A stretch of DNA of 64,000 nucleotides. It comes from an uncultured Eubacteriales bacterium (GTDB lineage: Bacteria; Bacillota; Clostridia; TANB77; UBA1234). The translations under genes and the position numbers were made by a program. The stretch is from assembly GCA_964394075.1 (NCBI GenBank), contig CAYMVI010000004.1, forward strand, positions 28,563 to 92,562, given 5' to 3'. Shown here piece by piece: positions 56,217 through 56,350 of the stretch (its first letter is position 1; the number at the start of each line of letters is the position of its first letter). The notes beneath the pieces are model-generated. The model had not been told where the DNA came from. It saw only the letters and a list, made by a program, of their open reading frames with translations, and searched no databases.

Positions 56217-56350
56217 GTGCGGAGCAAAAATAAAATTAAACATTGCGCAGAGCGCATTCCCCCTTTCACTGCTTTCTCCCCCATTAAGCAGAAACTTTCC
56301 ATAGTCTTCCGACTAATCATCCCCCAATCGCTCCGTACCCTGATGTATAT
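56217..56350 (+). other. GC-enriched structured non-coding element with three C5 tracts
   Basis: GCGGAGC...GCTCCG long-range complement enclosing hairpins TGCGC-AGA-GCGCA and CTGCTT-TCTCCCCCATT-AAGCAG; three CCCCC tracts; overlapping ORF 56217-56441 does not look protein-like. Confidence 0.4.

Follow-up and report, generated by a model that had tools for sequence, protein, structure and literature searches.

A conserved, C-rich, stalk-enclosed noncoding element upstream of dnaD-dnaI in uncultured gut Clostridia

A structured noncoding element was identified in a 64,000-nucleotide stretch of DNA from an uncultured Eubacteriales bacterium (GenBank assembly GCA_964394075.1, contig CAYMVI010000004.1; the whole stretch is referred to here as the window). 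The element spans positions 56199 to 56356 on the + strand and lies directly upstream of a dnaD-like gene. It is real, conserved, noncoding, strand specific, and structured, is with near certainty an RNA, has no Rfam family, and is restricted to one clade of uncultured gut Clostridia, in which it occupies one fixed locus. The motif is new in that it sets exposed C-rich seeds, a known principle, in an architecture of another kind; as for its function, we infer that it may control translation or read-through at the gene junction where it lies. An initial annotation of the same DNA had described a GC-rich structured segment at 56217 to 56350, placed it between a conjugation remnant and a DnaD/DnaI module, named phages and integrative and conjugative elements (ICEs) as places to look for it, and suggested an origin or a cis-regulatory RNA of a mobile element. 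The structure and the RNA part of that proposal were supported by the analysis; the mobile-element and origin parts were not.

RESULTS

A 27-nt inverted repeat encloses a C-rich interior

The true span of the element is a little wider than the segment first described. Its ends are a 27-nt imperfect inverted repeat (56199 to 56225 and 56330 to 56356), 89% complementary and with 104 nt between the arms, and the long-range pairing GCGGAGC...GCTCCG reported initially (56219 to 56225 with 56330 to 56335) is the core of this longer repeat. Both local hairpins and all three CCCCC tracts reported with it were also found, together with a third hairpin that had been overlooked. The parts of the element are listed below, with homologous loci designated L001, L002, and so on.

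56199 to 56225, + strand: 5′ arm of the stalk, ATAAAAATATATATCAAGGTGCGGAGC, with the conserved core GGTGCGGAG; paired in the minimum free energy (MFE) and centroid folds, with compensatory changes in 20 of 25 pairs
56244 to 56256, + strand: hairpin 1, TGCGC-AGA-GCGCA; limited to the window and to L002, its nearest relative
56259 to 56263, + strand: C-tract 1, CCCCC, single-stranded, predicted unpaired probability of ∼1.0
56269 to 56291, + strand: hairpin 2, CTGCTT-TCTCCCCCATT-AAGCAG, from the fold; its loop displays C-tract 2 (CCCCC, 56278 to 56282)
56302 to 56315, + strand: hairpin 3, (T)AGTC-TTCC-GACT(A), from the fold; RNAalifold pairs at columns 116 to 119 with 124 to 127
56321 to 56325, + strand: C-tract 3, CCCCC, single-stranded, 4 to 5 nt ahead of the 3′ arm
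56330 to 56356, + strand: 3′ arm of the stalk, GCTCCGTACCCTGATGTATATTTTTAT; two of the stalk pairs are G-U in the window, and the full stalk forms only on the + strand

The + strand RNA folds at −45.9 kcal/mol, compared to −17.7 ± 3.3 kcal/mol for 200 dinucleotide shuffles used as the null for the full element (z = −8.6; none of the 200 was as good), and its MFE structure is the same as its centroid. For the − strand, z is −4.7 and the ensemble is unstable. Two known architectures were considered and rejected by eye: a tRNA-like one, since there is no D or T arm, and a 6S-like one, since there is no long internal helix with a central bubble.

The description of the segment as GC rich holds in part. 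The G+C content of 100-nt windows peaks here at 0.49 compared to ∼0.27 in the surroundings, but at 43% G+C the interior is only in the top 7% of the window, and the region is better described as C rich. The interior contains 33% C, compared to a window mean of 16%, which places it in the top 0.1% of 106-nt windows, and its excess of C over G is in the top 0.2% within the window. Its CCCCC tracts are 3 of only 10 runs of five or more C on both strands of the 64 kb.

The element is conserved at one syntenic spot and is not coding

Related loci were found via DnaD relatives in genome contigs, metagenome contigs, and a protein index. Eighteen loci of related gut Clostridia metagenome-assembled genomes (MAGs), whose DnaD proteins are 61 to 99% identical, carry the element in an equivalent syntenic position: the window, L001 to L006, L008 to L010, L111, L113, L115 to L119, and L122. 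Seven further assemblies of the L003 species (L123 to L129), which come from different human gut samples, also carry it. Among these seven, the element shows only two differences, a C5/C6 length polymorphism in the last C-tract (∼1040 to 1050, before the 3′ arm) and one flanking single-nucleotide polymorphism.

More distant loci with the same synteny have no element. Nothing is present at the junction spot in L011, a simple GC hairpin is present in L120 and L121, and in the outgroup L013, which has the same gene order, a plain intrinsic terminator, AAAGAGCATATAATTTG...CAAATTATACGCTCTTTTTCGTTTTTT, lies at the junction ∼240 to 170 nt upstream of dnaD (∼5760 to 5830). Loci with other upstream genes do not have the element.

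The initial view that the segment is noncoding was borne out by these homologues, none of which shares a conserved open reading frame (ORF) across it. The frame that is open across the element in the window is open there only; L002, which is 92% identical, and the other homologues have stops. Nearly all homologues have stops in every frame, or in the corresponding frame, and their indels are not multiples of three.

The Rfam search proposed initially returned no family at the element. At the gathering thresholds of Rfam 15, the whole window gave only tRNAs; at E ≤ 10, the region from 55000 to 57500 gave only chance snoRNA-type matches far under threshold; and at E ≤ 1, seven homologous loci gave no match at the element. 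A blastn search of 56100 to 56480 against plasmids and phages found no match, and the exact element pattern had 0 matches in viral contigs. The degenerate stalk pattern GGTGCGGAGN{80,110}CTCCGYACC had 23 matches in viral contigs, which were judged to be unrelated chance matches: nearly all are in G+C-rich contigs (locus G+C of 0.40 to 0.72), none has the C-tract pattern or the extended stalk, and their number is not above a rough chance estimate made by hand.

The element is single copy as far as it was searched. No second copy occurs in the 64-kb window, and a covariance model, R1, built from 8 sequences and run over 821 kb found no further true copy. Additional R1 matches were rejected; those in L115 (4992 to 5107 and 919 to 1019) are unrelated long hairpins, and those in L060, L063, and L026 are inverted DnaA-box clusters. 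The L115 match at 4992 to 5107 is a near-perfect ∼50-bp hairpin between the convergent dnaI and a 467-amino-acid (aa) gene, probably a bidirectional terminator; its length as a hairpin is the sole reason that it matched R1 and the miRNA-precursor models of Rfam.

The stalk covaries and the interior keeps hairpins of changing sequence

The 25-pair stalk was scored in a gap-free, arms-only alignment of 17 distinct sequences. Stalk cells were paired in 93.9% of cases, compared to 77.4% after column shuffles and 31 to 50% when the partner was slid, and none of 500 shuffles reached the pairing of the stalk. Double compensatory changes were found in 20 of the 25 pairs, and RNAalifold on the full element detected compensatory changes in 16 of 31 pairs. 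The structured nature claimed for the segment is thus supported both by the RNA fold and by covariation of the stalk. The stalk is 25 to 28 bp long across loci, and its core, GGUGCGGAG/CUCCGCACC, varies pairwise. For instance, it is GGUGUGGAA/UUCCAUACC in L009 and L010, GGUACGGAG/CUCCGUACC in L115, and GAUGCGAAG/CUUCGCAUC in L116, L117, and L119, each a paired variant.

The interior is variable in sequence and in length (88 to 183 nt in the 18 loci). Interior folds beat shuffles in most loci (mean z = −2.9), and independent folds place hairpins of differing sequence at equivalent positions across homologues. Hairpin 1 is not present in L001 and L008, and other sequence takes its place in the remaining loci. 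The stems of hairpin 2 include CUGCUU/AAGCAG, CUGC/GCAG, UUUGCU/AGCAAA, CUGUA/UACAG, and AUUACU/AGUAAU, with a loop that is usually C rich, and those of hairpin 3 include AGUC/GACU, UGCC/GGCA, CCAAG/CUUGG, and GAUGC/GCAUC. The MAFFT and cmalign alignments of the interior were out of register for hairpins 2 and 3.

The composition and pairing favor a single-stranded function of the + strand

C exceeds G on the + strand in all 18 interiors (19 to 35 C and 6 to 12 G; a C/G ratio of ∼2 to 4). One to three tracts of four to six C are present in each of these interiors, whereas G tracts are present in none. The C-tracts have predicted unpaired probabilities of 0.80 to 1.00, at least one of them is usually in a hairpin loop, and one lies directly ahead of the 3′ arm in ∼11 of the 18 loci. 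Within the stalk, 27 cells are G-U compared to 8 that are A-C, and one U-G wobble is kept in 15 of the 17 sequences; this excess is supportive but not decisive, since many of the cells are inherited. The orientation is the same in 25 of 25 assemblies (the 18 loci and seven of one species), and a consensus scan found no promoter-like site inside the element on either strand.

The C bias, the wobbles, the unpaired C-tracts, the fixed orientation, and the lack of an internal promoter in that scan together favor a single-stranded function of the + strand, most simply as RNA. A protein-bound DNA palindrome was considered and is argued against by the strand bias, the G-U wobbles, the unpaired C-tracts, and the fixed orientation. 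The cis-regulatory RNA suggested initially is therefore close to the best-supported reading because of the strand-specific composition, the G-U pairs, and the covarying helices, but its assignment to a mobile element is not supported, the context being chromosomal (see below).

A conserved promoter separates the element from dnaD

The following features lie between the element and the end of dnaI.

56375 to 56404, + strand: candidate promoter P1, TTGTCA-18-TGTAAT, read from the sequence and the alignment; in the subclade of the window only
56425 to 56453, + strand: dnaD promoter P2, TTGCTT-17-TATATT, sigma-A type; invariant alignment columns
56429 to 56474, + strand: predicted hairpin between the P2 −35/spacer region and the dnaD Shine-Dalgarno (SD) region (GGGAGGG, 56463 to 56469), from individual folds of 18 loci
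56476 to 57453, + strand: dnaD-like gene, two DnaB_2 domains (Pfam PF07261, E = 3.6e-28)
57468 to 58454, + strand: dnaI-like helicase loader gene, Pfam IstB_IS21 and Bac_DnaA ATPase domains; syntenic in all loci

P1 was missed by the consensus promoter scan. For P2, the pattern TTGnnn-17-TATAnT is found in all 18 element-bearing loci, with the end of the −10 box 20 to 27 nt ahead of the dnaD ATG. This means that the main dnaD transcript begins nearly at the SD and does not contain the element, and a role of the element as a classical dnaD 5′ leader is not supported, given this conserved promoter.

Complementarity between the P2 spacer and the SD was found in nearly all loci, with both sides covarying. 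For example, the pair is CCUACCC/GGGUAGG in L118, and matched changes give GCUUUUCUCUCUC/GAGGGGGGAAAGC in L115 and UUAUUCCUU/GAGGAGGGAUAA in L113. RNAalifold on the MAFFT alignment, which is out of register here, recovered only a 5-pair core. Such a hairpin is possible only in transcripts that begin upstream of P2, which suggests that such transcripts exist and that dnaD is translationally silent in them. The SD-sequestering hairpin in read-through transcripts is a lead that comes from the modeled folds.

Rare G and C tracts also coincide at this junction. In ∼7 kb around dnaD, runs of five or more G on the + strand are almost only those of the dnaD SD (10 of 18 loci, with one other in ∼115 kb), and ∼30 of 37 runs of five or more C are inside the element. 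SDs with five G are rare in the genome of the window (2 of 51 crude gene starts). In every locus, the predicted duplex between the element and the dnaD translation initiation region (TIR) was better than the mean of 41 other TIRs.

The junction lies in an ordinary chromosome

The element follows a set of T4SS (type IV secretion system)-like genes.

52993 to 54654: T4CP (type IV coupling protein)-like gene fragments in three ORFs (52993 to 53430, 53369 to 53530, and 53524 to 54654)
54657 to 55013: T4SS-pilin-like gene
55022 to 55915: 297-aa membrane protein, TrbL/VirB6-like in relatives
55924 to 56202, + strand: 92-aa membrane ORF, small and VirB3-like, the last of the T4SS-like set; its stop codon (56200 to 56202) is within the stalk base

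The T4CP-like gene is in two ORFs in the same-species MAG L002. The order of T4CP-like, pilin-like, VirB6-like, and small membrane ORFs followed by dnaD and dnaI is found in every related locus fetched, and the equivalents of the T4SS-like set lie directly 5′ of dnaD-dnaI in L003 (443 to 3700), L009 (2534 to 5862), and L111 to L122. What had been read as a conjugation remnant is instead a conserved four-gene set that is always 5′ of dnaD-dnaI in this clade. Of the 17 loci scored, 13 have the upstream stop codon at −1 to −20 nt relative to the start of the stalk, and the upstream ORF of L009 and L010 extends into the element.

Elsewhere, the window encodes mnmA, ABC-F, Ham1, CotJA/CotJC, a pseudouridine synthase, SpoIVA, SpoIIE, pyruvate kinase, RsmB, FeoB, and Lon. 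For the ORFs that were scanned, Pfam gave no relaxase, VirB4, integrase, or Rep family, and neither did the precomputed annotations of the loci. The window is part of an ordinary chromosome from a spore-forming member of the Clostridia and not of a mobile element, and the mobile-element framing is unsupported because every related locus repeats this gene order among chromosomal genes. dnaD and dnaI look like a housekeeping helicase-loader operon, which goes against a phage or ICE module. An origin, whether of transfer (oriT), of single-strand synthesis (sso), or of another kind, is likewise unsupported, in view of the negative plasmid, phage, and viral-contig searches, the absence of a relaxase among the ORFs checked, and the absence of DnaA boxes at the element, their count in the window being that expected by chance.

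DISCUSSION

Proposed function of the element

The reading that we put forward, tentatively and as a possibility, is that of an RNA, clamped by its stalk or excised, whose C-tracts are displayed as anti-SD sequences, chiefly against dnaD. In most loci, the stop codon of the upstream gene lies against the stalk and leaves no room for a separate promoter, and therefore the element would most simply be a + strand RNA, made as the untranslated tail of the message of the upstream T4SS-like operon. In that RNA the stalk would enclose a domain that is rich in A and U, poor in G, and folded into two or three short hairpins. It could act as a clamp or as an RNase III-type processing stalk that stabilizes, delimits, or excises the enclosed RNA, and it would separate the upstream message from the dnaD-dnaI unit. 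The C-tracts would then serve as anti-SD seeds for G-rich ribosome-binding sites, the foremost candidate being that of dnaD, whose SD in this clade is an unusual run of five or six G lying almost at the 5′ end of the P2 transcript. This pairing may lower or time dnaD-dnaI translation, acting in trans on RNAs that start at P2 or in cis on RNAs that read through from upstream; such read-through is likely, since no consistent U-tract follows the stalk. The coincidence of the rare G5 and C5 tracts, the ranking of the dnaD TIR, and the precedent of C-rich small RNAs (sRNAs) are what point to an anti-SD role with dnaD as the target. A more specific version, in which an RNase III-cut C-tract RNA acts in trans on the dnaD SD so that expression of a domesticated DNA-transfer or DNA-uptake apparatus directly tunes the synthesis of DnaD and DnaI, is decidedly unlikely; if true, it would establish a novel RNA family and a novel connection of DNA transfer with the control of replication in gut Clostridia.

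Several observations weigh against the anti-SD proposal. The pairing of cognate elements and SDs was not significantly better than that of noncognate ones (P = 0.17 for duplex energy and P = 0.16 for the longest Watson-Crick run), and the complementarity is thus a generic one of a C run to a G run. A G-rich dnaD SD is also found in element-less outgroups (GGGGG in L013; GGGG in L012 and L014), and the SD already has a local partner in the P2 spacer, which leaves less need for the C-tracts of the element. Neither a promoter nor a terminator of the element's own was found by the scan or from the stop-codon positions. The interiors of L122, L119, L113, and L010 are no more structured than shuffles, and because the interior aligns poorly, the covariation of hairpins 2 and 3 comes from independent folds and not from a formal count.

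Other explanations of the element

The position of the element, exactly at an operon junction with a stop codon on one side and a conserved promoter on the other, would also suit an insulator or terminator in which the C-rich untranslated RNA is a Rho utilization (rut) site, the stalk is a pause or structural element, and the SD hairpin helps to shield the essential dnaD-dnaI unit, which has its own promoter, from transcription or translation coming in from the upstream genes. Like a rut site, the interior is an untranslated, C-rich, G-poor stretch of at least 80 nt right after a stop codon that appears to be defined by composition, as its C/G ratio of ∼2 to 4 is held everywhere despite the variable sequence and length and as the window interior ranks in the top 0.1 to 0.2% for C content and C-G excess. 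The same spot is occupied by the intrinsic terminator in L013 and the GC hairpins in L120 and L121, and read-through transcripts with a sequestered SD would be untranslated and open to Rho. We nevertheless consider this somewhat unlikely, because a long, conserved closing stalk and covarying hairpins are needless for a rut site and structure usually disfavors Rho loading, and because the C residues are in homopolymer tracts, often in hairpin loops, and not in spread YC dinucleotides. Nor is the element an intrinsic terminator: the + strand scan found none at the element, in the window ∼17 nt separate the GC core from the closest U run, and in most homologues the stalk is not followed by one. 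A passive role, as a 3′ stabilizer or RNase III site of the upstream mRNA whose stalk blocks 3′ exonucleases or is cut so that the two units decay separately, and whose interior has no function of its own, would account for why the near-perfect stalk is the best-conserved and best-covarying part, abuts the stop codon, and encloses a poorly conserved sequence. It is unlikely, since it leaves unexplained why all 18 interiors have C-tracts, a strong C-over-G bias, and no G tracts and why hairpins with C-rich loops are retained, and since a simple hairpin would do, as in L013.

Explanations at the DNA level fare less well. The adjoining T4CP-, pilin-, VirB6-, and VirB3-like genes and primosome genes might suggest a single-stranded DNA element (oriT, single-strand origin, or primosome assembly site) that folds during T4SS-like transfer, and strand-specific covarying hairpins would fit single-stranded DNA too. 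However, the locus is chromosomal and inherited vertically, the scanned ORFs and precomputed annotations gave no match to a relaxase, VirB4, Rep, or integrase, and nothing alike was found in plasmids, phages, or viral contigs. Moreover, wobble (G-T) pairs are conserved, a 100- to 200-nt loop is unlike the inverted repeats of oriT sites, and no ssoA CS-6 motif (TAGCGT) was seen by eye in the element, which makes this explanation highly improbable. The invertible promoter switches of gut Firmicutes, such as those of Clostridioides difficile flgB and cwpV, have imperfect inverted repeats of ∼20 to 30 bp around 100 to 200 bp upstream of an operon, and the repeat described here resembles them in size and position; concerted changes in the two arms could in addition arise through coevolution with a recombinase. 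Even so, an invertible phase-variable segment or an insertion like a miniature inverted-repeat transposable element (MITE) is very improbable. The orientation and the C-rich strand are constant in the 18 loci and the seven more independent assemblies of one species, the interior is strand biased, has structured hairpins, and has no promoter-like site on either strand, and no recombinase family was matched among the nearby ORFs scanned. The element is also single copy in the window and in the 821 kb covered by the covariance model, and it has held an orthologous position across deep divergence.

Comparison with known RNAs and significance

Exposed homopolymer C-tracts in loops are a hallmark of Firmicute RNAs that pair with G-rich ribosome-binding sites. 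In Staphylococcus aureus, RNAIII and the Rsa RNAs use UCCC hairpin loops as anti-SD seeds, with the involvement of RNase III; the element likewise shows C-rich motifs in hairpin loops but is much smaller than RNAIII, has no sequence relation to it, and is embedded at an operon junction. Long helices formed by the 5′ and 3′ flanks of stable RNAs are RNase III stalks, as in rRNA precursors and the Bacillus subtilis scRNA precursor. The ends of the element similarly form about two helical turns of near-perfect duplex around an RNA; the differences are that the enclosed RNA is only ∼90 to 180 nt, that it is poorly conserved save for its C-tracts, and that cleavage is a prediction. The C-rich regions of RoxS pair with G-rich sequences of target mRNAs, including one at an extreme 5′ end (PMC5419742), and several C-rich, single-stranded regions are also found in the Firmicute RNA RsaE (PMC6158497). 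The element resembles these two RNAs in having accessible C-rich motifs (three C5 tracts in the window and one to three tracts of four to six C in the 18 homologues). It differs from them in matching no Rfam model, including at the seven homologous loci, in having no promoter and terminator of its own, in its 25- to 28-bp terminal stalk, which RsaE and RoxS do not have, and in its occurrence at one fixed locus in one clade of uncultured Clostridia.

If the anti-SD proposal is right, an essential replication-initiation and restart operon of widespread uncultured gut Clostridia would be guarded by an undescribed RNA device, a clostridial counterpart of the C-rich anti-SD regulators of Bacillales and staphylococci with a different biogenesis, being operon embedded and stalk clamped. 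Even as an insulator or terminator, the element would be a clean new RNA motif, supported by covariation, for RNA family databases. The locus also illustrates that conjugation-like genes beside dnaD need not mean a mobile element.

Other observations

Clusters of DnaA boxes were seen upstream of more distant DnaD-family genes. Of 72 such loci (L017 to L087), whose DnaD proteins are ∼21 to 30% identical to that of the window, 55 have three to nine boxes (TTATCCACA, ≤1 mismatch) that precede the DnaD-like gene by 100 to 450 nt. Inverted and tandem boxes recur, for example, in L060 (510 to 672) and L026 (3022 to 3161), and no such cluster is present in element-bearing loci. These clusters could be a site of DnaA control of dnaD or an origin-like region.

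Downstream of dnaI, on the − strand at 58529 to 59947, the window encodes a 472-aa protein with a hydrophobic, prepilin-like N-terminal segment, many Cys/His-rich repeats, and no Pfam match; an equivalent of 424 to 497 aa is convergent to dnaI in most related loci. Five tRNA genes are present in the window, at 32997 to 33070, 41705 to 41777, and 43226 to 43457, the last three being tightly clustered.

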